Below are positions 11,691-57,276 of a DNA stretch of 64,000 nt, piece by piece. This DNA is from Alphaproteobacteria bacterium (GTDB lineage: Bacteria; Pseudomonadota; Alphaproteobacteria; RF32; CAG-239). The stretch is taken from contig CAAFZY010000005.1 of the NCBI GenBank assembly GCA_900767645.1, positions 28,986 through 92,985 on the forward strand. Direction: 5' to 3'. How positions within the stretch are numbered: the stretch's first letter is position 1; the number at the start of each line of letters is the position of its first letter. Both the position numbers and the translations under genes were made by a program. Under the pieces are notes generated by a model, which searched no databases, was not told where the DNA came from, and saw only the letters and a list, made by a program, of their open reading frames with translations.

Positions 11691-12248
11691 GTGTCAGATT
11701 TTGAAGAACAGCCTCGCAAGCCGAAAGCATTGCGCAAAATTACCAAGCAAAGGCTTAAAAATGTAGGTTTATATTACTTAAAGCGCTTTGAGTCGTCGGA
11801 GGATAATTTAAGGCAGGTGTTGCGGCGGCGGGTGAATGATTACGCTTATTATAATCCGGATTTTAACAAAACGGAGGCATACGGCTGGATAGAAGAAGTT
11901 TTAAGCGATTTTACCGGTTGGAAATATATTGACGATGAGCGATATGCCTCGCTTAAAGCGCGCGATTACTTAAATGCCGGAAAGCCTGAGCGCTACATTA
12001 AAGCTAAGCTCAAGCAAAAAGGGGTTGATGAAAACATAATTGCCGAAGTTTTAAGCAAGCAGGAATATGACTCCAAAGAAATGGCGCTTAACTTTGCCAA
12101 AAAGAAAAAAATCGGTCCGTTTCGCCCCGATGAAGAAAGCCGCAAGCTTAATCGGCAAAAAGATATGGGAACATTAATCCGCGCCGGCTTTGACTATGAC
12201 ACGGCGGCAGAGGTTTTAGGTGAGGAATTGTTTGGCGGAGAATACTAA
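11691..12248 (+). CDS. recX: RecA regulator RecX
   Basis: YIDDERYA...GxxRIxxELxxKGI-like repeats and a RecX-like C-terminus. Confidence 0.65.
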   Translation: MSDFEEQPRKPKALRKITKQRLKNVGLYYLKRFESSEDNLRQVLRRRVNDYAYYNPDFNKTEAYGWIEEVLSDFTGWKYIDDERYASLKARDYLNAGKPERYIKAKLKQKGVDENIIAEVLSKQEYDSKEMALNFAKKKKIGPFRPDEESRKLNRQKDMGTLIRAGFDYDTAAEVLGEELFGGEY

Positions 12249-13159
12249 TGGATAAAATGCTCGCGGCATTTTTTGAGTTTGTGTTTGACCGGCAGGCGGT
12301 TTGGCATAAGCGCACGGCTTTAGGGTTGCCGGCGCCGTGGACGGACGATAATATTTTGCAAAATTTCAGGTTTTGCAATGTGTATCGCGAACTTGACGGC
12401 GGAACGATTGCCATCGGCAAATATTTGGCGCAGCCGCTGCCGGCGGAGCAAAAGTTGTTTAATATTATTGCGTACCGCTTTTTTAATCGGCGTGACACAA
12501 TTGAAAATTTGTTCGGAGGGCTGCTTTCAGAGCAAAATTTTGACTTTAAAACCTTGGAAAAGCGTTTTGACGCTAAAAAGAAAGAAGAAAACATTTTCTC
12601 AAACGCATATTTGATTACGGCGCACGCCTATAACCGCAATTACCGTCCGCAAGACAAGCATGTGCAAATTTTGCTGATGCTGAATGATTTGCGCTTTAAG
12701 CTGAAAGATATAATCAAAACTCTGCACGAATCGGCACCGCAAGAGGGTTTGCGGATTATTGCCGAGGCAGTGCCGATGGCGGGGCCGTTTTTGGCGGGGC
12801 AGATTTTGCTTGACGCAACATACGCTAAAAACATTGTGCCCTATACCGCGAATGATTTTTTAATTGTGGGTCCGGGGGCGCATTGGGGACTTAACATAAT
12901 TTGCGGGCGCGCGCTTAATAAAAAAGAGGCAGATGCGGAATGTCGCAAATTGTGGCAAATGCAACCGCAGGCGTTTGCAGAGCTTAAACAAACGACCGAC
13001 AAAGACTGGAACGAGGTCAGATGGCAAAACGAATCGTATTGCGGCGGCAAGTATTTATGTTTGCACGATGTGCAAAACAGCTTGTGCGAATTTAGAAAAT
13101 ATTGGCGATTAAAACAAGGCGAAAACGCCAAAAGGCGTTATTTTAAGCCGACAAATTAA
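12248..13159 (+). CDS. conserved uncharacterised protein, translationally coupled to recX (TAATGG overlap)
   Basis: 303 aa with FRFCNVYRELDGGT and VGPGAHWGLNI motifs. No confident family assignment. Confidence 0.5.
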   Translation: MDKMLAAFFEFVFDRQAVWHKRTALGLPAPWTDDNILQNFRFCNVYRELDGGTIAIGKYLAQPLPAEQKLFNIIAYRFFNRRDTIENLFGGLLSEQNFDFKTLEKRFDAKKKEENIFSNAYLITAHAYNRNYRPQDKHVQILLMLNDLRFKLKDIIKTLHESAPQEGLRIIAEAVPMAGPFLAGQILLDATYAKNIVPYTANDFLIVGPGAHWGLNIICGRALNKKEADAECRKLWQMQPQAFAELKQTTDKDWNEVRWQNESYCGGKYLCLHDVQNSLCEFRKYWRLKQGENAKRRYFKPTN

Positions 13160-15297: not shown

Positions 15298-15557
15298 GGT
15301 ATACCTTAAAATATTGATTAAAATTAGTGTGATAGTATAACTTTTGCGTTTTAAGTCAAGGGAGATGTTAAAAAATTAAACAAATTAAAGGTTTTTTAAC
15401 AAAGGTGCGGATATGCTCCGTGGTGAATGTATTGCAAAGTCTTTATTTTAAGAAAGATATATATCTTGCACTTATGACTAAAGATAGGCTTGTTTAGAGG
15501 GCTGTTTTGCAGTATAGTTTAACTTGTAAACAAGAATATTTTTTAGGGGAAAATATT

Positions 15558-16211
15558 ATGAAACACATTAATGAAAACGGTCGTTCCATGGTTGAAATGC
15601 TCGGCGTGCTTGCTATTATCGGCGTTTTGTCAGTAGGCGGTATTGCTGGTTATTCAAAAGCTATGAACAAATATAAAATCAACAAAACTACCGATCAGGT
15701 TTCAATGCTCGTTGCTAACCTTCGTACTTTGTTCTCTTCACAGGGTAACTATGCCGGTTTGACCAATGCTCAAGCTAAAAAATTCGGTGTTGTTCCGAAT
15801 GATATGTACACTTCAGTATCAGGTGACAGTATTAAAAACGCTTTCGGCGGCGATGTTACTATTGCTGCTGATAAAGCAAGAAACGGCGATGCCAGCAGCA
15901 ATGAAGCTTTCACCATCAGATATGACGGTTTGTCTTCAGAAGCTTGCGTTACTGTTTCTACCGGTGACTGGGGTTCAGGTCAGGCTTCCGGCTTGATTGC
16001 TCTCGGTGCAGGTGAAACAGCAACTTTGACTACTGCAATGATGACCGCTTTAATGACAGATGGCGGAACTCCGGCAGCTGCTGCTAAAGTAGTTACAGCG
16101 CAACCTGGTGATGCCAACGTTCCGACTCCGATTACCGTAAGCCAAGCTGTTGCCGCTTGTGATGGTGGCTCTAACAACTCTTCTTACTCTGTAATGTGGA
16201 AGTACTACTAA
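15558..16211 (+). CDS. type IV pilin-like protein, paralog 1
   Basis: Prepilin-type N-terminus NENG|RSMVEMLGVLAIIGVLSV with Glu at +5. An RBS (AGGGGA) precedes the ATG at 15558. Confidence 0.65.
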   Translation: MKHINENGRSMVEMLGVLAIIGVLSVGGIAGYSKAMNKYKINKTTDQVSMLVANLRTLFSSQGNYAGLTNAQAKKFGVVPNDMYTSVSGDSIKNAFGGDVTIAADKARNGDASSNEAFTIRYDGLSSEACVTVSTGDWGSGQASGLIALGAGETATLTTAMMTALMTDGGTPAAAAKVVTAQPGDANVPTPITVSQAVAACDGGSNNSSYSVMWKYY

Positions 16212-28752: not shown

Positions 28753-28918
28753 GGTTCTTTGCAGAGGTATTATAAAAGGCACAAGTTTTATAAAAGGTGC
28801 CTGTTTACAAAATTACAAAAGGTGGCGGATTTTCCCCACCTTTTGGTGTTTTAAAAAACTTAAGGGAATTTTTATAAATACACAGTATCGTTATAATTGT
28901 TTAACGAAAGGAACAACT

Positions 28919-29830
28919 ATGGATAGGCAAGTAATTGAAATTATGAATGATGGCTTTATGCTGTCATTGCACCGAGGTTTTATTGTAGTTGAAAATAAAG
29001 AGCAGCAAATTAAACATGAAGTTCCGCTTGATAATGTGCTTGCGTTGGTGCTATCGGCCAACAATGTGGTGGTTTCAAAAAATATTATAAATGCAATTTG
29101 CGAGCAGGGCAGAAATGTTATTTTTTGTGATAAGACTTACCTGCCTTCCGCAATTACTATGCCATATACCGGACATTGGCTGATTGCTCCGCGAGTTAGG
29201 CAGCAGGTTGAATGCTCAAAACCATTACAAAAAAACTTATGGAAAAGTATTGTTCAGCATAAAATTTTGAATCAAGCTTTGGTGTTGGAATATTTTTTTC
29301 CGCAGCATGCCAATATTGAACGATTAAAACAATTATCAAAAGCAACGCTAAGTGATGATGCCAGAAATAATGAGGGAATCGCAGCGTCTATTTATTTTAA
29401 ATCATTATTCGGAAAACATTTTGTGCGCGACCGTCTTAATAATGATGTCAATATTTTGCTTAACTATACATACACGGTATTGCGCGCCGTTGTGGCCAGA
29501 GCAATTGCCGGAAGCGGATTATTGCCATATTTAGGGCTTAAGCATTGCACAAAGTCTAATCCGTTGCCGTTGGTTGATGATTTAATTGAACCGTTCAGAG
29601 CAGTGGCAGATAAAATTGTGTTTGAAGAGTTAAATAAGTTGGTGGATATAAGCAATATTGAATTAACTCCTGAAATTAAGCGCAATTTGGCAAAAGTTAT
29701 TACATATTCGGTGCAAACGGCTAAAGGCTGTATGTCATTAAATGATGCGCTTTGTGATTTTGCCGGTACTTTAGTTGCCAGTTTTGAGCAAAAGAAAGTA
29801 GCGTTAAAATATCCCGATATTTTGTTTTAA
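28919..29830 (+). CDS. cas1: CRISPR-associated endonuclease Cas1 (type II)
   Basis: FCDKTYLPS..., EGIAASIYFKSLFGKHFVR and LPYLGLKH motifs. The start was chosen at ATG 28919 (RBS AAAGGAAC) rather than at the ORF-track start 28739. Confidence 0.85.
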   Translation: MDRQVIEIMNDGFMLSLHRGFIVVENKEQQIKHEVPLDNVLALVLSANNVVVSKNIINAICEQGRNVIFCDKTYLPSAITMPYTGHWLIAPRVRQQVECSKPLQKNLWKSIVQHKILNQALVLEYFFPQHANIERLKQLSKATLSDDARNNEGIAASIYFKSLFGKHFVRDRLNNDVNILLNYTYTVLRAVVARAIAGSGLLPYLGLKHCTKSNPLPLVDDLIEPFRAVADKIVFEELNKLVDISNIELTPEIKRNLAKVITYSVQTAKGCMSLNDALCDFAGTLVASFEQKKVALKYPDILF

Positions 29831-29945
29831 ATAAAATAATGGGGGTAACTAAAGTCGCCCCCTCATCTTACGGCATTTTCAGCCTTATTATATATGTGTT
29901 GACCGTCTAATTAATCTCTGAAAAATAAGCCAACTTATATAACAA
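29831..29945 (-). ncRNA. predicted tracrRNA
   Basis: On the minus strand there is a TTGACA-16-TATATA promoter (29979-29952). It is followed by a 24-nt anti-repeat (UCAGAGAUUAAUUAGACGGUCAAC) perfectly complementary to repeat nt 7-30. A nexus-like AAGGCUGAAAAUGCCGU and a GGGGG...CCCCC hairpin plus U-run terminator follow, ending next to the cas1 stop. Confidence 0.6.
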
Positions 29946-30031
29946 TATTAGTATATAAAAAATTTAATTGAATTGTCAATTAAAATATTGTACCGTTGCT
30001 TATATTTCTATTAAAATTATAGGAGCTTGCT

Positions 30032-33000
30032 ATGAAATATTGTTTAGGACTTGATTTAGGCGTTGGCTCAATCGGTAGCGTGGTTGTGGAATTAGATAAA
30101 AATAATAATCCTGAAAATATTGCAGATGCCGGAGTGCGGATTTTTGAGGTATCGGAGGGCGCAGAAGAAAGGCGAACAAAACGCACGGCGCGTAAAAATT
30201 TAATCAGAACAAGAAAACGTTTAGAACTTTTAGCACAAAAATTGTATGAAAATAATTTATGGGTTAGTGCGAATCCTGAAGGCACAAATAATTTAAAATC
30301 AAAATCTCCTTATAAAATTCGTTATGATGCTTTAAATGGTAAGTTGGAAAATCAAAATTATATCGGGCGAGCAATTTTGCATTTGGCGAAACATCGTGGT
30401 GCCGGTTTTGTTTCAGCCGCTGAAGAAATGGAAGAAGAAGTTTTAGAAGAAGGCGAAAAATCTAAAGCTAAAAAATCTTCTTATGACATGATGCTTTATC
30501 ATTTAAAAGAAACAAATTCCAGAACTGTCGGTGAGTTTTTTTACAATAAAATAATCTCCGGTAAAGGAAATGATAAAACGGTTCGTCAGAAAAAATATGC
30601 CATTGAAAAGAATATTATAGATTACGCAATTCCGCGCTATTTGGTAAAAGATGAGTTCAATCAAATTTGGAATAAACAAGCCGAATTTTATCCACAGATG
30701 AAAAAAGAAAATTTAAAGAAAGAAATTTACGATATTTTGTTTTATGAACGTCCGGCAGCACCATACGCAACCGGTAAATGCATTTATTTCAGGGATGAAG
30801 ACCGCCTGCTAAAAGCGCACCCTCTTTCAGAGATGCGCCGTATTTATGAGGAAGTCAACAACATTCGTATTTTAAATGATATGAGTAAAAGAAAATTAAC
30901 CTTGGAAGAAAGAGATTCTATTATTAATGAGCTTTTGCTAAAAGGCCAAAATGCAGGTAAACAGGCAATCAAAAAATTGCTTAATTTGTCTGCGCAACAC
31001 AAAATTTCTTTGGTTGATGACAGAGTAATTAAAGCCTATTTATATTCTCGTCCTGAATTTGCAAATAACGAATATTTACAAAAGATGAATGAAGACGAGC
31101 TTTCATCTTTTATTGAGTTTTTGTCAGAACCAAAAATATCACAGGATAAAAATGGCCGTTTATACAATGAAGATTCGTTAATTGAGTATCTTAAGCCAAT
31201 TCTGAAAATTGATGACGAAAAAGAAATCGGCAACCTTTTAACCAAACTGCCCAAAGGGAGAGGAATGTTAGGTATAAGCGCCACAAAAATTATTCTGGAA
31301 AAATTAAAAGAAGATGTATTAACACATCGTGAAATTACCGATAAATTAGCCGAAACAGATAAACGATTTATGGCAGAGGAAGAAATAGCCCGCCAAAATC
31401 AGGGAAAATGTTTTCAACTTCCGTATTACGGGGAGATCTTGCAAACAGATACGGCTCCGCTTCCGCCTTTAATGATAAATAACAACAAGAGCCTTAACCA
31501 TGACGAGATAAAATGGGGTAAAATAGCCAATCCTGCCGTGCATATGATTCTCAATCAAATTCGCTTAGTTGTTAATGAAATTATCAAAATTTACGGCAAG
31601 CCTTACAATATCAATATTGAACTTGGTCGTGATGTCGGTATGTCAACAAAGAAGAAAAAAGAATTTGAAAACAGACAAAAACAAAATGAAAAACTTAATG
31701 AAGAGGCTAAAAAATATTTAAAAGAGCATAAAATTGTCATAAACAGTAAAAACATTTTAAAATACAAATTGGCCAAAGAGCAAGGCTGGAAAGATGCCTA
31801 TAATCCGACACAAAATATTTCTTCCGTATTTACGGGTATGGAAGTTGAGCATATTATTCCCCAAGCCAAAGGCGGAACAGATACATATAACAATCTCTGT
31901 TTAGTTAATAGCAATGACAACTTAAATAAAGGCGACCGATATGCCTATGAATATTTTGCAGAAACAAAAACACCGGAAGAAATCAGAGAAATTCTAAAAA
32001 ATGCCCGTTCCCGTACCCCTGACAAGTCTTGGCGTTTTGAAGCTGATGCGCGAGAAAAATATGAAGAAAGCGGCGATAAAGAAGAAAGTACCCGTTATTT
32101 GACGGATACCCGCTATGTTGCAAAAATGGCGGCACGTTATTTGCGAGCTATTGTTGATTGCCCTGATTGTGATGAAGTTATGGACAATCGTATTTTGGCA
32201 GTCAAAGGCGGGCAGACTGCAGAGTTGCGTAAGCGTTGGGATTTGCAAGGCTTGGAATATGATTTAATGGGCTTAAATATCCCGAGATATATTGATTGCG
32301 CGCCATATTGGCGGGAGTTGGATACCGGCGAAATAATTGACGGAGAGCAAAAGCCGGATATTGATGGTAATTGGAAATTTTATAATTGTGTAAAGAATCC
32401 TGAATGGTCGCCAAAGCCACGTATTGACCACAGACATCATGCGATGGATGCTATAACAGTTGCTTGTGCAAACCGTGGATTAATTCAGAAAATGGCAGAA
32501 GAAAATGATATTAACAAAATTCATTATCCGTTGCCTTTAACTTCTGTTGAATCTGTAGCAGATTTTAGAAGAAAAGTTATTTCCTGTCTAAAAGATATCA
32601 AAATTTCGCACAAACCTGATCACAGTAAGGCTGGACAATTACATAAAGAAACAGGCAGAACTGTTTTGTGTCAAAACCCTGATGATCCAAATTGTTTAAT
32701 CACTGTTTATTCTCGCAAAATTTTACAGGTGGTAAAATCTGCTAAAGATTTAACTAAACTGCTCATTCCAGAAACAATCAAGAATGAATGGCATGAGGAT
32801 ATTGCAGAATATAAAGCCAAACAGGCTAAGCTAGTACAAGATTTTGAACTTTATATGAATACGGCGGAGCAAATTTTAATTGCCGAAAATGAACAGGGTG
32901 TGGCAGAAGGTAAAAAGGAAATTAAAATTACTGAAGGAAGAATTTTGTTAAAGGCGTTCCGTATTATTCAAGATAAAGGCCTATGGAAAGGTGATAAATT

Positions 33001-33499
33001 TAGATGCTATGAAAATAATTCTTCTTTGGTTTATATCAAAAAACATGGTGTGGCTTATGAAGGGCGAAATAACCATTGTGTAGATTTTTACGTTAAAGAT
33101 GGTAAAGTCGGTTGGGAGGTTATTAAACGATTTGATGCAAATCAGCCTGATTTTGTTCCGCAATGGAAAAAAGACGGAGGAAAACTTATTTGGTCAGTTC
33201 AACAACGCGATATGTTGGAATTAGATACTCCTGATGAGTGGAAATCATATACCGATAAAGAGCGCTGTTTAGCTAAAGTAAAAAAGTTCAGCGATGGAGA
33301 ATTTAATATTGATTATATGGCTGACGCTCGTATGACATCGCCAAAAGATAAAAACTTAAAATATATGTTTGTTAATACTTTAAGAAAGGGGCTGGCATTT
33401 TTACTTCAGCATAAAGCGCGGAAAATAGAACTTACACCGTTTGGCAAAGTAAAGAAAAAACATAAGGTGTTGTGGAATGGCACGAAGACAGCGGCTTGA
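30032..33499 (+). CDS. cas9: Cas9 (type II-C-like, 1155 aa)
   Basis: RuvC-I GLDLGVGSIGSVVV. Arg-rich bridge helix. RuvC-II NINIELGRD. HNH VEHIIPQAKGG...NLCLVNSNDNLNKGDRYAYEYF. RuvC-III HRHHAMDAITVA. An RBS AGGAG precedes the ATG. Confidence 0.95.
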   Translation: MKYCLGLDLGVGSIGSVVVELDKNNNPENIADAGVRIFEVSEGAEERRTKRTARKNLIRTRKRLELLAQKLYENNLWVSANPEGTNNLKSKSPYKIRYDALNGKLENQNYIGRAILHLAKHRGAGFVSAAEEMEEEVLEEGEKSKAKKSSYDMMLYHLKETNSRTVGEFFYNKIISGKGNDKTVRQKKYAIEKNIIDYAIPRYLVKDEFNQIWNKQAEFYPQMKKENLKKEIYDILFYERPAAPYATGKCIYFRDEDRLLKAHPLSEMRRIYEEVNNIRILNDMSKRKLTLEERDSIINELLLKGQNAGKQAIKKLLNLSAQHKISLVDDRVIKAYLYSRPEFANNEYLQKMNEDELSSFIEFLSEPKISQDKNGRLYNEDSLIEYLKPILKIDDEKEIGNLLTKLPKGRGMLGISATKIILEKLKEDVLTHREITDKLAETDKRFMAEEEIARQNQGKCFQLPYYGEILQTDTAPLPPLMINNNKSLNHDEIKWGKIANPAVHMILNQIRLVVNEIIKIYGKPYNINIELGRDVGMSTKKKKEFENRQKQNEKLNEEAKKYLKEHKIVINSKNILKYKLAKEQGWKDAYNPTQNISSVFTGMEVEHIIPQAKGGTDTYNNLCLVNSNDNLNKGDRYAYEYFAETKTPEEIREILKNARSRTPDKSWRFEADAREKYEESGDKEESTRYLTDTRYVAKMAARYLRAIVDCPDCDEVMDNRILAVKGGQTAELRKRWDLQGLEYDLMGLNIPRYIDCAPYWRELDTGEIIDGEQKPDIDGNWKFYNCVKNPEWSPKPRIDHRHHAMDAITVACANRGLIQKMAEENDINKIHYPLPLTSVESVADFRRKVISCLKDIKISHKPDHSKAGQLHKETGRTVLCQNPDDPNCLITVYSRKILQVVKSAKDLTKLLIPETIKNEWHEDIAEYKAKQAKLVQDFELYMNTAEQILIAENEQGVAEGKKEIKITEGRILLKAFRIIQDKGLWKGDKFRCYENNSSLVYIKKHGVAYEGRNNHCVDFYVKDGKVGWEVIKRFDANQPDFVPQWKKDGGKLIWSVQQRDMLELDTPDEWKSYTDKERCLAKVKKFSDGEFNIDYMADARMTSPKDKNLKYMFVNTLRKGLAFLLQHKARKIELTPFGKVKKKHKVLWNGTKTAA

Positions 33500-33518
33500 A
33501 ACTTTAACCGGATGGTCT

Positions 33519-33839
33519 ATGATGTGGATAATATGTATGTTTGATATTCCGGTCAGGACTAAAACCGAAATGCGTAAAGCGACTCGTTTTCGTAATTTGC
33601 TTTTGGATAATGGTTTTGTTATGAAGCAGTTTTCGGTTTATATAAAACCGGTAAAAAGCTTAAATGTTGGACAAACAGTCACGAAAAGCCTTGCAAAGTA
33701 TATTCCGGATAACTCTTCTGTCTCTTTTTTATATATTACCGATAAACAATATTTAATGACGGAAAATTATTTGGGAAAAAATTATGAAGAGAATGAAGAA
33801 GAGAATCGCGAAAAAAATGGGCAATTATTGCTTTTTTAA
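33519..33839 (+). CDS. cas2: Cas2
   Basis: MMWIICMFDIPVRTKTEMRKATRFRNLLLDNGFVMKQFSVYIK matches the Cas2 beta1-alpha1 pattern. The ORF-track start 33477 would overlap cas9 by 23 nt, so the ATG at 33519 is preferred. Confidence 0.8.
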   Translation: MMWIICMFDIPVRTKTEMRKATRFRNLLLDNGFVMKQFSVYIKPVKSLNVGQTVTKSLAKYIPDNSSVSFLYITDKQYLMTENYLGKNYEENEEENREKNGQLLLF

Positions 33840-33913: not shown

Positions 33914-34740
33914 AGCATATCAGAGATTAATTAGACGGTCAACTATAACTATTTCGCCCTCAATGTATCGATATTTTGTAGCATATCAGAGATTAATTAG
34001 ACGGTCAACTATAACGCTTGGTTCTGCGACGTCTCAAGGACATTTAGCATATCAGAGATTAATTAGACGGTCAACTATAACACAGTACCGGCAATGTTGT
34101 ATAGTCGTCACAGCATATCAGAGATTAATTAGACGGTCAACTATAACTGCCACCCATGAGCCCGCTTGCTATTTCTAGCATATCAGAGATTAATTAGACG
34201 GTCAACTATAACTAGCTGTCAATAGCTTTTTTATTATTTTCCAGCATATCAGAGATTAATTAGACGGTCAACTATAACTAATTTACTGTGCTCTTTTTGC
34301 TGAATAAAAGCATATCAGAGATTAATTAGACGGTCAACTATAACAGAAGTATGACGAGTACTCAGAATATTATAAGCATATCAGAGATTAATTAGACGGT
34401 CAACTATAACACAAGCTGCAGGATAGGCTTATTCAGCAAAGCATATCAGAGATTAATTAGACGGTCAACTATAACATGTTTTGCTCAATAACAGTTTTGT
34501 TAACTAGCATATCAGAGATTAATTAGACGGTCAACTATAACGCTAAAATGTTAGCGTTGGTCTTTATTGACAGCATATCAGAGATTAATTAGACGGTCAA
34601 CTATAACTATCCGGACATATTATACATCATGTCACCAAGCATATCAGAGATTAATTAGACGGTCAACTATAACAATTTTCGGACGGTGTCGGCGCATAAG
34701 TGAAGCATATCAGAGATTAATTAGACGGTCAACTTATAAC
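33914..34740 (-). CRISPR. CRISPR array of 13 copies of a 36-bp repeat and 12 spacers (ten of 30 bp, two of 29 bp). The repeat on the crRNA strand is GTTATAGTTGACCGTCTAATTAATCTCTGATATGCT.
   Basis: Repeat copies start at 33914, 33980, 34046, 34112, 34177, 34243, 34309, 34375, 34440, 34506, 34572, 34638 and 34704. The cas-distal repeat (34704-34740) carries a 1-nt insertion. The repeat begins with GTT in minus orientation and is complementary to the tracrRNA anti-repeat. Confidence 0.95.
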
Positions 34741-34755
34741 CAAGTATTGTTATAG

Positions 34756-34866
34756 CCTTTCGCTTGTAGTCGGTCTGGCTTGTAAGCTCTGCCTAAAGGC
34801 AATCGCTAACTGCGCTGCGGTCACTTGTTTTGTAAGCTCGCTGCGGTTGCTGTCGCTTTCCTTGCT
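34756..34866. repeat. partial copy (3' half) of the ~185-bp repeat element whose full copy is at 56968-57150
   Basis: cctttcgcttgtagtcggtctggct...gctgcggttgctgtcgctttcc is about 90% identical to 57031-57141. Confidence 0.7.
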
Positions 34867-35005
34867 CGCGAACAAAACTACGCTTTCGGCGATAAAAAAG
34901 CAGATAACAGCTTTTTTATCTTGAAACTCACTCCGTGAGTTCGAACCTCTACTTTCACTCATTATTTACAACAAAACCCGCCACAAGGGCGGGTGTTGTT
35001 GTAAA

Positions 35006-35026
35006 TGGCGGATAGAGTGAGATTAT
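35006..35026. repeat. duplicated 3' end of tRNA-Ser (aatggcggatagagtgagatt), att-like direct repeat
   Basis: A 21-nt exact copy of 35172-35192 lies about 150 bp from the tRNA. It is preceded by a GC hairpin. Confidence 0.65.
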
Positions 35027-35105
35027 TCCGCTGCGCTTCATTCACTGTGCTCATCGGCTATCGCCGACCGGCGTACTCCCGTCCGCCTTTCGCTTGTAGT
35101 CGAAC
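35027..35105. repeat. partial copy (5' part) of the ~185-bp repeat element
   Basis: attccgctgcgcttcattcactgtgctcatcggctatcgccgaccggcg...cctttcgcttgtagtcg is about 90% identical to 56968-57047. Confidence 0.7.
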
Positions 35106-35174
35106 TCACTTCTCGTGAGTTCTTATCTTCTGAATATGCCATTACAAAAAGCCCCATAAAGGGGCTTTTTGTAA

Positions 35175-35265
35175 TGGCGGATAGAGTGAGATTCGAACTC
35201 ACGGTACCCTTTGGAGGTACACACGATTTCCAATCGTGCGCCTTAGACCGCTCGGCCATCTATCC
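35175..35265 (-). tRNA. tRNA-Ser (anticodon GGA)
   Basis: 91-nt cloverleaf GGATAGATGGCCGAGCGG...UUGGAAA anticodon loop...long variable arm...GTTCGAATC...GCCA, reconstructed from the reverse complement. Confidence 0.85.
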
Positions 35266-35340
35266 ATAGCTACAACTTCTAAATCGTTTTTTGCTAATTG
35301 GCAAGCCTTTTTTTCTGCTATTTGGATTTTTATTATATTC

Positions 35341-36057
35341 TTAAAATTCGGAATGAAAAATGTTAATTCCGTTTTTTAAATTTTTTATCAGATTGCTCAA
35401 ACTTTTTTGTTGATGTTGTTCCGGTTTGGGCGCAAAAGCGCTACCGTAACTGACGGGGATTTTTATCCGAATCGATGATTTTCTTAAATTTACGGGCGTT
35501 ATTTGTTTGTAGTTCTTGAAATCGGTTTTGCCGTTAAAGCCTAATTCTTTTAAAAACGGGCTTAAAATTGTTTTGTATGTATCGCGTTTATCTCTGAAAA
35601 TAATATTGTCCCAAAACTCTTGAAATTTGGAGTTTTTGATTATGTTATGCTTAAAAATTATAAACCGCCCGTTATCTTCGGGAATATGGTTATATTTTTC
35701 CGTCATGCCCCAAAAATCATAATTTTGAAATTTAAGATACGCTGAAATATTTTGTAAATGATTAAGCGGAGCATAAGTGTTTTCATTGCAAAAAACCACT
35801 TCATCATATTCAAGCAGTTTTTGCCACCCTAAGTGATAAATTAAATATTGCCATGAACCGTAATCATTGCCATTATGAACTACCGAATCGGCGTAAACTA
35901 TACAGTCTTGCAGTTTTTGCAATTCAGATGCCGGCATTGTTCCGTTATTTAAATAATATACATCGCCGGTTTTTGTTAATCTTTGTAATAAAAAAACGGT
36001 ATAATCATTAAGAATATTACCGTTATTGCGTCCGACCGCAAGGTAAATTCTGCTCAT
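35341..36057 (-). CDS. hypothetical protein
   Basis: 238 aa with no recognised motifs. The region is AT-rich. Confidence 0.4.
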   Translation of the reverse strand: MSRIYLAVGRNNGNILNDYTVFLLQRLTKTGDVYYLNNGTMPASELQKLQDCIVYADSVVHNGNDYGSWQYLIYHLGWQKLLEYDEVVFCNENTYAPLNHLQNISAYLKFQNYDFWGMTEKYNHIPEDNGRFIIFKHNIIKNSKFQEFWDNIIFRDKRDTYKTILSPFLKELGFNGKTDFKNYKQITPVNLRKSSIRIKIPVSYGSAFAPKPEQHQQKSLSNLIKNLKNGINIFHSEF

Positions 36058-49679: not shown

Positions 49680-50348
49680 ATGATGATGAAATATAATGAA
49701 AACGGCCGTTCAATGGTTGAAATGCTTGGCGTATTGGCGATTATCGGCGTTTTGTCGGTTGGCGGTATCGCCGGCTATTCAAAGGCTATGAACAAATACA
49801 AAATTAACAAAACTACCGATCAGGTTTCAATGCTTGTTGCTAACATCCGTACTTTGTTCTCTTCACAGGGCAACTATAAAGGTTTGACTAATGCTCAGGC
49901 TATTAAATTCGGTGTTGTTCCGAATGATATGTATACTCCTAAATCAGGAAATGCAGAGATTACTGAAATTACAAACGCTTTTGGTGGCGCTGTTACTATT
50001 GCTGCTTCAGGAGGTCGTGCTAAAGATGATAATGAAGCTTTTACTATCGCTTACAGTGGGTTGACATCTGAGGCCTGCATTACCATTGCCACCGGTGACT
50101 GGGGTTCAGGTCAGGCTTCCGGTTTGATTGGTATTGCTGCGGTTGGTAAGGAAGCAGAAGACGCTACTGATAAGGGTGCTTTGGCCAAACTTGCAGAGAT
50201 CTATACCACAGCCACTGATGGAACTGCTAATGTAAGCATACCTGGTGCTACAGATACAGCCAATAGAACTCCGATGACTGTTTCTAAAGCTGTTGGAATA
50301 TGCAATGGATCTGGCAGCACTAACTCAGTTGCTTGGAAGTACTACTAA
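49680..50348 (+). CDS. type IV pilin-like protein, paralog 2
   Basis: N-terminal 60 aa near-identical to paralogs 1 and 3 (NENGRSMVEMLGVLAIIGVLSVGGIAGYSKAMNKYKINKTTDQVSMLVAN). An RBS GAAGGA is present. Confidence 0.65.
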   Translation: MMMKYNENGRSMVEMLGVLAIIGVLSVGGIAGYSKAMNKYKINKTTDQVSMLVANIRTLFSSQGNYKGLTNAQAIKFGVVPNDMYTPKSGNAEITEITNAFGGAVTIAASGGRAKDDNEAFTIAYSGLTSEACITIATGDWGSGQASGLIGIAAVGKEAEDATDKGALAKLAEIYTTATDGTANVSIPGATDTANRTPMTVSKAVGICNGSGSTNSVAWKYY

Positions 50349-50542: not shown

Positions 50543-50618
50543 GGTTCCATCGTCTAGTGGTCTAGGACGCGGCCCTCTCAAGGCTGCAACACGGGTTCAA
50601 ATCCCGTTGGAATCACCA
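50543..50618 (+). tRNA. tRNA-Glu (anticodon CUC)
   Basis: GGTTCCATCGTCTAGTGGTCTAGGAC...anticodon loop CUCUCAA...GGTTCAAATCC...ACCA. It is followed by the terminator aaaaccgcctttacggcggtttt. Confidence 0.7.
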
Positions 50619-56235: not shown

Positions 56236-56862
56236 TTATAAATCCCATTTAATTTTTAAATGAGGAGTTTTTTTGCCGATATGCATGGTGCAAATGTCAT
56301 AAATGTTATTAAGAGTTAAATCTTTTAAGCATTGTCCTCCTTTGGCGCATTTTTGGTCGCCATACATAACCGCAATATTGTAATCATCTGTGTTCCAACC
56401 GTTCAGGCTTTCAAGTTGGGTGATGTTACCGGAGTTTTCTTTGGCGGTTATCAGTATGTTGCGGCATATCTCTAAATTTTGGGTGCTTTTAGTTTCAAGT
56501 TGAGGCTCCATAAATAAAATGACACGCTTTGCACCATCTTCATATAGCTCATAAGCGATATAATAGGCATTTTTAAAAATGTCATAAATGAACCCGTCAT
56601 AACTGACAGCCATTTCTTTGGGAATTTCGCCCATTTTAATAAAGATGCCGGTTAAGTTTGCGCCCTGTTTTAAATTAGCAAAATTATGCGCGTTGCTTGC
56701 AACCGCATTAATTACAGTGTTTAATTGTTCCGCTTGTTTGTTAAGCTTGTATTTGAACATTGCCTTAGAGTATCCGGCAATCGCCCCGACGGATAAAACC
56801 CCGATAATCGCAAGAACGCCGAGCATCTCGACCATAGACCGCCCATTTTCTGATTTCATCAT
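56236..56862 (-). CDS. type IV pilin-like protein, paralog 3
   Basis: MMKSENG|RSMVEMLGVLAIIGVLSVGAIAGYSKAMFKYKLNK. An RBS GAGGAG lies 8 nt upstream of the ATG at 56862. The ORF track extends to 56877. Confidence 0.6.
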   Translation of the reverse strand: MMKSENGRSMVEMLGVLAIIGVLSVGAIAGYSKAMFKYKLNKQAEQLNTVINAVASNAHNFANLKQGANLTGIFIKMGEIPKEMAVSYDGFIYDIFKNAYYIAYELYEDGAKRVILFMEPQLETKSTQNLEICRNILITAKENSGNITQLESLNGWNTDDYNIAVMYGDQKCAKGGQCLKDLTLNNIYDICTMHIGKKTPHLKIKWDL

Positions 56863-56919
56863 TAAAAATCTCCTCAAAAAGTTACTTTTAAAATAATATT
56901 ATCTCGCGTTTTTTTTTTG

Positions 56920-56954
56920 CAATATTTACGAGTCCGTGCTGTGTATAAGTTGTA
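56920..56954. repeat. 35-bp conserved noncoding motif, copy 2 (copy 1 at 440-474)
   Basis: See copy 1. It lies just upstream of the putative pilin-3 promoter TTGCAA-N17-TAATAT (minus strand). Confidence 0.6.
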
Positions 56955-56967
56955 TGTTATCGGCGGG

Positions 56968-57150
56968 ATTATTCCGCTGCGCTCCATTCACTGCGCTCAT
57001 CGGCTATTGCCGACCGGCGTTCTTCCGCCCGCCTTTCGCTTGTAGTCGGTCTGGCTCATAAGCTCTGCCCTATGGGCAATCGCTAACTCGCTGCGGTCAC
57101 TTGTTTTGTAAGCTCGCTGCGGTTGCTGTCGCTTTCCTGGCTCACCGTAA
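56968..57150. repeat. ~185-bp repeat element, full copy (partial copies at 34756-34866 and 35027-35105), located 3' of tRNA-Arg
   Basis: Aligned by eye to the two partial copies. It contains internal direct repeats ctcgctgcggt x2 and is followed by the hairpin aaaaaaagcaccgtaatggtgcttttttt. Confidence 0.65.
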
Positions 57151-57199
57151 ATGTCTATCCGCACCATTAAAAAAAGCACCGTAATGGTGCTTTTTTTAA

Positions 57200-57276
57200 T
57201 GGCGCGCCCGGCGGGATTCGAACTCACAACCTTCTGATCCGTAGTCAGATGCTCTATCCAATTGAGCTACGGGCGC
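57200..57276 (-). tRNA. tRNA-Arg (anticodon ACG)
   Basis: GCGCCCGTAGCTCAATTGGATAGAGCA...anticodon loop CUACGGA...GGTTGTGAGTTCGAATC...GCCA, from the reverse complement. Confidence 0.85.

Follow-up and report, generated by a model that had tools for sequence, protein, structure and literature searches.

The gene for transfer RNA (tRNA) Ser(GGA) in an alphaproteobacterium of the GTDB lineage CAG-239 (assembly GCA_900767645.1) is flanked by a copy of its own 3′ end and, a few hundred base pairs further on, by a type II CRISPR-Cas locus (CRISPR, clustered regularly interspaced short palindromic repeats). What kind of DNA has entered this tRNA gene, and whether the CRISPR-Cas genes arrived with it, is the question addressed here. 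The window analysed is the whole stretch of 64,000 nucleotides (nt) found at positions 28,986 to 92,985 of contig CAAFZY010000005.1. tRNA genes are classic landing sites of mobile DNA; the known players are large, carry their own integrase and use one tRNA. The initial annotation, made from the sequence alone, had read the fragments as the signature of repeated site-specific integration at a tRNA gene. That signature is borne out by the restored tRNA, the displaced 3′ end, the T-loop junction and the presence of two stacked events. The fragments are not one-off attachment-site scars of an integrase island, but parts of a conserved gene-less unit that recurs at 21 kinds of tRNA in about 100 loci. 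These units are probably members of a clade-specific family of non-autonomous, trans-mobilised elements that target the T-loop, of which the window holds two tandem copies.

Two stacked units at tRNA-Ser(GGA)

The direct repeat at this locus is the 21-mer AATGGCGGATAGAGTGAGATT, present in two exact copies in the 64 kb (35004-35024 and 35173-35193). The initial annotation had recognized the exact copy of the tRNA 3′ end and placed it 2 nt off, at 35006-35026. A scan allowing up to three mismatches found no third copy in the 64 kb, and none of 100 shuffles produced such a repeat by chance. Nineteen of the 21 bases correspond to tRNA nt 76 to 58, comprising the CCA, the discriminator, the acceptor 3′ strand, the T-stem 3′ strand and three bases of the T-loop; the other two are trailer bases. 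As first reported, a G+C hairpin precedes each copy (34965-35005, with a core at 34976-34994, and 35139-35177). The locus is composed of the following segments, listed from the tRNA outwards (loci of other genomes are designated by L and a number):

35175-35265, minus strand: tRNA-Ser(GGA), intact, CCA encoded (ARAGORN; Rfam tRNA, 59 bits); its nt 58-76 are the proximal copy of the direct repeat
35139-35177, no strand assigned: Term1 (H1), 17-bp terminator hairpin CCATTACAAAAAGCCCC/GGGGCTTTTTGTAATGG (sequence and fold)
35101-35138, no strand assigned: small hairpin CGAACTCAC-TTCTC-GTGAGTTC (35101-35122) followed by a decayed inverted T-loop/acceptor remnant, TTATCTTCTGAATATG
35025-35100, minus strand: proximal module A (read as A′ on the strand of the tRNA, ACTACAAGCGAAAGGC ... 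GCGGAAT; covariance model)
35004-35024, minus strand: second, distal tRNA-Ser 3′ end, with nt 58-76 (35006-35024) and two trailer bases (exact 21-mer repeat)
34965-35005, no strand assigned: H2, terminator hairpin belonging to the distal, older unit (comparison with L006, L020 and L076)
34921-34964, no strand assigned: distal small hairpin GAAACTCAC-TCC-GTGAGTTCG and inverted T-arm-like remnant (GTGAGTTCGAACCTCTAC...) (sequence)
34773-34920, plus strand: module B (34773-34867) and a 53-nt tail (34868-34920) with an A/T-rich hairpin inside (repeat match)
34755-34772, minus strand: remainder of the truncated distal module A, GCCTTTCGCTTGTAGTCG, the initial 18 nt of A′ (weak covariance-model match, 34709-34779)

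This arrangement results from two stacked events: an intact proximal unit (35004-35177) and an older distal one (34755-35005) that is interrupted by module B and truncated. The distal copy of the tRNA end at 35004-35024 is the 3′ end displaced by the proximal unit. Term1, whose stem takes in the tRNA CCA (TGG on the plus strand), is 79% alike to the hairpin beside tRNA-Arg and was brought by the proximal unit, as the comparison of filled and empty sites places such a hairpin within the insertion. In the proximal small hairpin, tRNA nt 57 to 49 are copied twice, the second time inverted, on either side of a loop. Module A of the proximal unit is matched at 35017-35109 by a covariance model built from 50 copies of A (107 bits, E 7e-39) and displays two hairpins with compensatory changes together with the invariant GGT and ATGAG.

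The distal unit is a composite. H2 belongs to a hairpin type (TTTACAACAAAACCC.CC.CAAGG..GTAAA) conserved among the tRNA-Ser(GGA) units of other genomes. The string CCGTGAGTTCGAACCTCTAC, an inverted T-arm-like sequence, is indeed present, at 34933-34952 and not at the position first given for it (34937-34956). The small hairpin and inverted remnant recur as a composite in L104 and, with Gly-type arms, in L044. Module B (34773-34867) is 93% identical to 57049-57143 and was also found in L104, L044, L024, L053 and L093. It represents a repeat family distinct from A and lies within the older distal A unit, nested at the TCG^AA junction in the orientation opposite to the tRNA. The two halves of a repeat element of about 185 bp that had been noticed here are thus real matches to the tRNA-Arg flank (35021-35102 with 56967-57048, 93%; 34755-34867 with 57031-57143, about 94%), but they stem from the two families A and B and not from one element. 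The truncated distal A abuts unrelated DNA. Both the composite and its breakpoint are identical in L104 (at tRNA-Ser) and L044 (at tRNA-Gly), where the adjoining DNA differs each time and there is no CRISPR array; therefore the CRISPR array, considered as a cause of the truncation, can be ruled out.

A related layout is found inside the window at tRNA-Arg(ACG), so the unit is not a private scar of tRNA-Ser:

57200-57276, minus strand: tRNA-Arg(ACG), intact
56961-57202, minus strand: tRNA-Arg(ACG) unit (covariance-model match 56963-57055, E 6e-33), made of a 3′-end remnant (56961-56970), A (56971-57046), B (57049-57143), a 20-nt spacer and a terminator hairpin (57164-57202)

The 10-nt remnant, CGGCGGGATT, is a copy of the T-stem/T-loop of tRNA-Arg itself, and the T-stem and T-loop sequence GTGAGTTCG is common to tRNA-Ser(GGA), tRNA-Arg(ACG) and tRNA-Trp. 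At the orthologous loci, L069 carries the plain unit and L053 the plain unit plus B. Across the window the covariance model identified only the expected copies, two full and one truncated (weak).

The unit family in gut and rumen Alphaproteobacteria

A comparative set with one genome per species was searched with an 18-mer from A. It yielded 107 stretches, about 100 of them from metagenome-assembled genomes (MAGs) of uncultured gut and rumen Alphaproteobacteria and seven being chance matches in unrelated G+C-rich genomes. A tRNA lies no more than 400 nt away from 91 of the matches. All 91 run antisense to that tRNA, mostly ending 68-90 nt from its 3′ end, and 21 anticodon classes are represented. 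The match to the local tRNA holds on both sides of A. In 70 of 76 units the 9 nt that follow the conserved end of A (..GTAGT) equal nt 57 to 49 of the neighbouring tRNA, while the sequence before A copies nt 58-76 of the same tRNA, typically over 19-24 nt exactly. A therefore sits exactly between T-loop nt 57 and 58. The junction is constant throughout the sample and reads TTCG^AAT on the strand of the tRNA, TT^CGAA on the opposite one; (T/C)(T/C)CG on the former strand precedes A′ without exception, a regularity partly biased by the CG contained in the search word.

The remainder of the unit is also ordered. The 9-nt arm is followed by a conserved loop of 4-6 nt (TTCTC-like). Next comes an inverted T-arm copy, in which the loop is mutated (TTCaAAT or TTCtyAT) and the acceptor part decayed, and last a terminator hairpin whose stem pairs with the tRNA CCA. 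Even so, the inverted copies retain an enrichment for the cognate tRNA, which was outscored by a median of 2 of 25 non-cognate sequences. Along the tRNA strand, the tRNA gene is followed by Term1, the antisense copy (nt 76 to 49), the loop, the sense nt 49-57, A′, the sense nt 58-76 and, last, the original terminator. The unit is about 170 bp long and gene-less. It looks inserted into the most conserved loop of many different tRNAs, none of which it inactivates: the neighbouring tRNA stays intact.

Module A is about 76 nt long, with A′ ranging from 66 to 104 nt. Outside the search word, GGT and ATGAG are the invariant parts of A′. Ten of the 18 predicted pairs in its two helices show compensatory double changes (at pair 26:38, for instance, 27 sequences have G-C and 21 have A-U). 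A conserved structured RNA was what the initial annotation had named as speaking against its integration reading, and module A does prove to be a conserved structured element. Rfam 15, which includes ribozymes and omega-RNA motifs, returned tRNAs only at the gathering score. When matches at E ≤10 in 34600-35400 were considered, 21 of 22 were non-tRNA, all under the gathering score and either chance-like or overlapping the tRNA or a terminator. A hammerhead-like reading of ..GAUGAGCGC.. and ..CGAAAG.. was checked by eye and rejected, the "CUGAUGA" part being inside a covarying stem and unconserved.

Other cores occupy the same architecture, as at tRNA-Gln(CTG) in L017. Module B lies after TTCG on the opposite strand in L076, and it follows TCG on the strand along which B itself reads forward. 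Some loci depart from the common plan. L103 (tRNA-Gly GCC) and L028 (tRNA-Met) have no A core and show an inverted partial tRNA copy directly after the terminator, which reaches into the anticodon arm in L103 and is followed by B-like sequence in L028. Downstream of tRNA-Ala(GGC) in L092, B-type tandem repeats each start with the upstream region and the first ~21 nt of the tRNA-Ala gene (through the D-loop) and also hold an anticodon-arm-like fragment; B elements may thus also duplicate 5′ parts of tRNA genes. L010 (JAZSDI010000072.1), a 2.8-kb contig with a typical tRNA-Pro unit, is binned in an "Acutalibacteraceae" MAG and is probably a mis-binned alphaproteobacterial contig rather than a case of spread to Firmicutes.

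Filled and empty sites, stacking and spread

Polymorphic sites define what is inserted. At tRNA-Glu(TTC) of L084 the tRNA is directly followed by its own terminator and flank (an empty site), while L041 has one unit and L071 two units there, with the same terminator and flank after the distal 3′-end copy. The insertion or deletion therefore consists of a new terminator, the antisense copy, the loop, nt 49-57, A′ and nt 58-76 plus about 3 nt. The unit carries a terminator of its own; the original one lies distally, together with the original 3′ end that was displaced. The window itself provides an empty site at tRNA-Glu(CTC) (50543-50618), where L044, with flanks 97% identical, holds a B-type insertion with an 18-nt inverted copy and a 23-nt direct repeat.

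Units stack on the tRNA-proximal side. Proximal units are intact and distal ones truncated or nested, and a single tRNA can bear two units with different cores (L025, L059). At different tRNAs the variable part of A′ has a median identity of 0.74 within a MAG versus 0.64-0.67 between MAGs, some within-MAG pairs reaching 0.85-0.95. Similarly, the scaffold of the proximal Ser unit of the window is closer to the Trp and Arg(ACG) units of other genomes (0.78-0.81) than to their Ser(GGA) units (0.68-0.74). Chimeric units, in which nt 49-57 of one tRNA are combined with nt 58-76 of another, point to recombination between dispersed cores. The latter could explain why L104 (MAG B13_bin.31, 92% identical) has the same two tRNA-Ser units in another context on both sides, with different DNA where the window has the cas locus. 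The DNA distal to the unit stack varies between related genomes, and recombination between dispersed cores shuffles the flanks. Besides seeding rearrangements, the units interrupt the assembly of MAGs, as in contigs L024 and L133, which terminate within or beside a unit.

About 1.7 kb 3′ of tRNA-Glu(TTC), L084 carries units with Glu(CTC)-like nt 49-57 and nt 58-76 of tRNA-Val, no such tRNA being adjacent, and a GNAT-like open reading frame (ORF) flanked by ~130-nt repeats of tRNA end plus terminator. Both arrangements suggest that dispersed units have recombined with one another.

Nature and origin of the units

Under the explanation that we favour, namely a trans-mobilised family of T-loop-targeting elements, an enzyme encoded elsewhere would act on the units. 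It would break the tRNA gene once in the palindromic T-loop and once just past the CCA, about 22 bp apart. Fill-in or target-primed copying would duplicate nt 58-76, so that the essential tRNA would be regenerated. The 9-nt hairpin arm that matches the T-stem/T-loop may help to choose targets, or restrict them to tRNAs sharing that sequence. The family would be a small, non-autonomous, site-specific element that targets tRNA genes, possibly by a new insertion mechanism. The full extension of this scheme is a speculative one that we regard as rather unlikely to hold in all its parts: a new class of mobile DNA in which a trans-acting enzyme breaks TT^CGAA, the 9-nt hairpin is a re-programmable guide, the tRNA 3′ end is rebuilt by 22-bp staggered or target-primed copying and the stack is a landing pad for defence cargo (CRISPR-Cas, restriction-modification). 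If the units are mobile as proposed, an enzyme that recognises T-loop DNA and rebuilds the gene would represent a novel chemistry of insertion and might serve as a tool for inserting DNA at safe harbours.

Other routes to the same arrangement were considered and rejected. A single crossover in the 9-nt T-stem segment or in the T-loop would give a disrupted or chimeric tRNA. Recombination of a folded single strand (attC- or CTX-like) would put the core in the antisense copy, contrary to the data. Pure template switching would give identical terminators and a target-derived loop, and fails at L041, L071 and in the window.

Several points weigh against mobilisation in trans. Because no mobilising enzyme was identified, mobility rests on polymorphism and sequence relationships, and the "empty" sites could be deletions between the 19-nt repeats, not ancestral states. 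A target duplication of 19-24 nt is unusual for known transposases, and the match of both the internal hairpin arms and the inverted copy to the local tRNA is not accounted for by a simple staggered cut alone. The terminator hairpins conserved among tRNA-Ser(GGA) units of different genomes point to old locus-bound scaffolds, with cores homogenised by gene conversion, rather than to frequent jumps. In addition, the search word favours units with a conserved A end and CG at the junction, and the comparative sequences are nearly all MAG contigs.

Classical tyrosine-integrase scars were weighed as a source of the locus: phages, integrative and conjugative elements (ICEs) or islands would have repeatedly entered tRNA-Ser from the T-loop to the 3′ end, leaving the units as deletion remnants or as attachment-site-bounded cis-mobilisable mini-elements and CRISPR-Cas as an island leftover. 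The T-loop is a textbook sublocation for tRNA-integrating elements, and the direct repeat running from the T-loop to just past the CCA, the restored tRNA, the tandem accretion of units with cargo between repeats and the cas module beside three different tRNAs in different genomes all agree with such an origin. An integrase element is normally tied to one tRNA, however, whereas the same ~76-nt core is found at 21 tRNA classes, with near-identical cores at different tRNAs of a single MAG. No likeness to the T-stem half-site is seen in the variable 3′ end of A′, which adjoins the junction on the unit side, so there is no C/C′ core symmetry, and T-loop crossover between units of different tRNAs would yield chimeric, dead tRNAs. 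Mobility genes were searched for in 40 of the 52 window ORFs of at least 110 amino acids and in a gene table for most of 25-46 kb (a few small ORFs and 61269-62621 were left out). In agreement with the initial annotation, no integrase was found among the scanned ORFs of the window, nor were Pfam domains of transposases or reverse transcriptases, nor a tyrosine or serine recombinase in or next to the element. Clustering of the ORFs of at least 120 amino acids in the 8-kb flanks of about 100 loci revealed no recurrent integrase or other mobility gene, and the A core is absent from 2.9 million viral contigs, the 24 matches being all chance ones in unrelated coding DNA. We consider integrase scars unlikely to account for the units.

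A serious rival, if a quite improbable one, is a host-maintained module, in which a structured RNA or DNA structure would be tied to tRNA expression (a trailer small RNA, a processing or termination device, or a decoy T-arm), be inherited vertically, be matched to its tRNA by selection or gene conversion and be occasionally lost via the 19-nt repeats. The compensatory changes in the core helices with their invariant single-stranded motifs fit this reading, as do the arms that match the local tRNA even where orthologous tRNAs differ in the T-stem, the conservation of terminator hairpins among tRNA-Ser(GGA) units of different genomes and a fold far more stable than that of shuffles (z ~ -6.5 on either strand). 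Host maintenance is harder to reconcile with distal copies that are routinely truncated, nested and decayed, as parasites would be, with different cores (A, B, L017 type) at the same site and with tRNAs and close relatives entirely without a unit. The units also contain no promoter-like site, and no G-U versus A-C asymmetry that would indicate a transcribed, functional strand was seen in A′. It is very improbable that the units are by-products of repair or replication, that is, tandem-inversion duplications produced by template switching at the T-arm and terminator palindromes with no dedicated element. The succession of sense copy, terminator, antisense copy, loop and sense copy has that topology, and the two terminators are identical in L017, L015 and L019. 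Such an origin leaves unexplained the conserved foreign core at exactly nt 57/58, the conserved TTCTC loop, the unit-borne terminator that differs from the original one and the recurrence at 21 tRNAs in about 100 loci.

Relation to known systems

The T-loop junction, the restored tRNA and the displaced 3′ segment kept as a direct repeat are shared with tyrosine-integrase elements (P4-like phages, ICEs, genomic islands, tycheposons, cis-mobilisable elements), as are tandem accretion and cargo (a restriction-modification system, CRISPR-Cas) beside the tRNA. The units differ from these in being of ~170 bp, gene-less and without an integrase nearby, in having one core family at no fewer than 21 tRNA species, in holding an inverted T-arm copy with a target-matched small hairpin and in not being found in viral contigs.

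Another set of likenesses leads to the palindrome-associated transposable elements (PATEs) of the IS200/IS605 family and to repetitive extragenic palindromes (REP/REPIN), served by Y1 HUH transposases and REP-associated tyrosine transposases (RAYTs). Like these, the units are small, abundant, extragenic and hairpin-rich, with compensatory changes; they have no coding capacity, a single helper gene being presumed elsewhere; they are inserted in a fixed orientation directly 3′ of a fixed tetranucleotide (here TTCG); and a GTAG(T) motif directly precedes a hairpin. As in the guide sequences of IS608, the conserved CGAAAG just 5′ of the first hairpin holds the complement of TTCG. Against this, IS200/IS605 elements make no target duplication, while the units possess, besides two internal covarying hairpins, a target repeat of 19-24 nt each. 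Moreover, the hairpin stems of the unit are target-derived and not element-specific, and no Y1 transposase was found in the 64-kb window. The units do not conform to miniature inverted-repeat transposable elements either, as the terminator hairpin and the 3′ end of A′ are not inverted repeats and the duplication is of 19-24 nt, not of 2-10 bp.

Target-primed retrotransposition (R2, the Dictyostelium TRE, elements of the long interspersed nuclear element type) also uses tRNA genes as safe havens and generates variable, long target duplications, and the terminal target homology of the element could prime copying. The units differ by the lack of an associated reverse transcriptase, the bacterial host and the insertion inside a gene sequence with regeneration of the gene. 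By analogy only, integron cassettes and CRISPR arrays can be compared with the tRNA-proximal addition of units, each duplicating ~20-36 bp, and with structure being kept more than sequence. Unlike integrons, there is no integron integrase or attI, and unlike the units, the neighbouring type II Cas1-Cas2 duplicates the 36-bp CRISPR repeat and not a tRNA end. No published description of such units was found in a literature search, and the family is apparently undescribed; ordinary tRNA fragments left by integrated elements are known (PMC9897764).

CRISPR-Cas and other putative cargo

The units mark places where defence systems tend to sit, the Cas9 locus of the window among them:

28739-33839, plus strand: cas1 (28739-29830), cas9 (30032-33499) and cas2 (33477-33839) (Pfam)
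29893-29921: anti-repeat of the trans-activating CRISPR RNA (tracr)
33915-34741, plus strand: CRISPR array with 13 repeats of 36 nt, the last degenerate

All parts of a type II system are present (cas9, cas1, cas2, tracr anti-repeat and array). The array ends at 34741, 14 nt from the truncated unit and 434 bp from tRNA-Ser, which confirms the distance of about 430 bp first given. The G+C content of the cas locus is 0.32-0.37, versus 0.41 for the window.

A Cas9 scan of metagenomes retrieved 41 loci with 65-95% amino-acid and 70-84% nucleotide identity, none of whose flanks matches the window. The order in these relatives is tRNA, tracr-cas9-cas2-array and then cas1 reversed. Six of the loci have tRNA-Leu(CAG) beside the cas module and four have tRNA-Met(CAT); an A-type unit lies between tRNA-Met and tracr in L161, L162, L165 and L172. 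The cas module is thus found just 3′ of three different tRNAs (Ser, Leu, Met) in different genomes. Other stacks carry an MT-A70-type methylase and its partner (L086) or small ORFs (L048, L084).

The proposal that the CRISPR-Cas locus came on an island integrated at tRNA-Ser is therefore partly supported by the relatives 3′ of tRNA-Leu and tRNA-Met, and by the other DNA found in L104. It lacks a bounding second repeat and an integrase: a short-word BLAST search and a scan at up to six mismatches for a second tRNA-Ser repeat or unit remnant beyond the cas locus gave matches at chance level only. The data support the presence of cargo at the tRNA/unit hotspot, and do not prove that the cas locus of the window arrived that way. 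The cas module is a candidate cargo 3′ of the tRNA-Ser unit stack.

The gene order of the window (cas1, tracr, cas9, cas2, array) is itself unusual. In L134-L174 cas1 comes after the array on the opposite strand, and from the position and strand of cas1 in the 41 relatives the window, whose layout seen from tRNA-Ser otherwise agrees with theirs, looks like an inversion of the tracr-to-array block. The nucleotide identity of cas1 is ~70% where that of cas9 is 81-84%. The genes flanking the whole locus are FadL-like (26970-28241) and RgpF-like (35341-36057).

Other features of the window

Two PilS/bundlin-like (type IVb pilin-like) paralogues and a third ORF are found among 15507-16211, 49680-50348 and 56236-56877. 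The paralogues share repeats of 270 nt (86%) and 115 nt (77%), and the same 114 nt of the N-terminal part recur, inverted, in the third ORF; together they may constitute a pilin variation system. A 43-nt A/T-rich sequence (TTTTTTTGCAATATTTACGAGTC..TGTGTATAAGTTGTA) occurs at 432-474 and 56912-56954 with 88% identity. Its second copy has the pilin-like ORF 56236-56877 directly on one side and the tRNA-Arg unit on the other, and the repeat may be a shared promoter or regulatory region.

ORF 12248-13159, located between recX-like and ruvC genes, strongly matches the helical domain of the 5-hydroxymethyl-dU DNA kinase (PF18723, E 2e-48), a family linked to phage thymidine hypermodification. Two tandem repeats of 115 nt (89% identical, 165 nt apart) were found at 21574-21853, inside an autotransporter-like ORF of 1401 amino acids (21037-25242).

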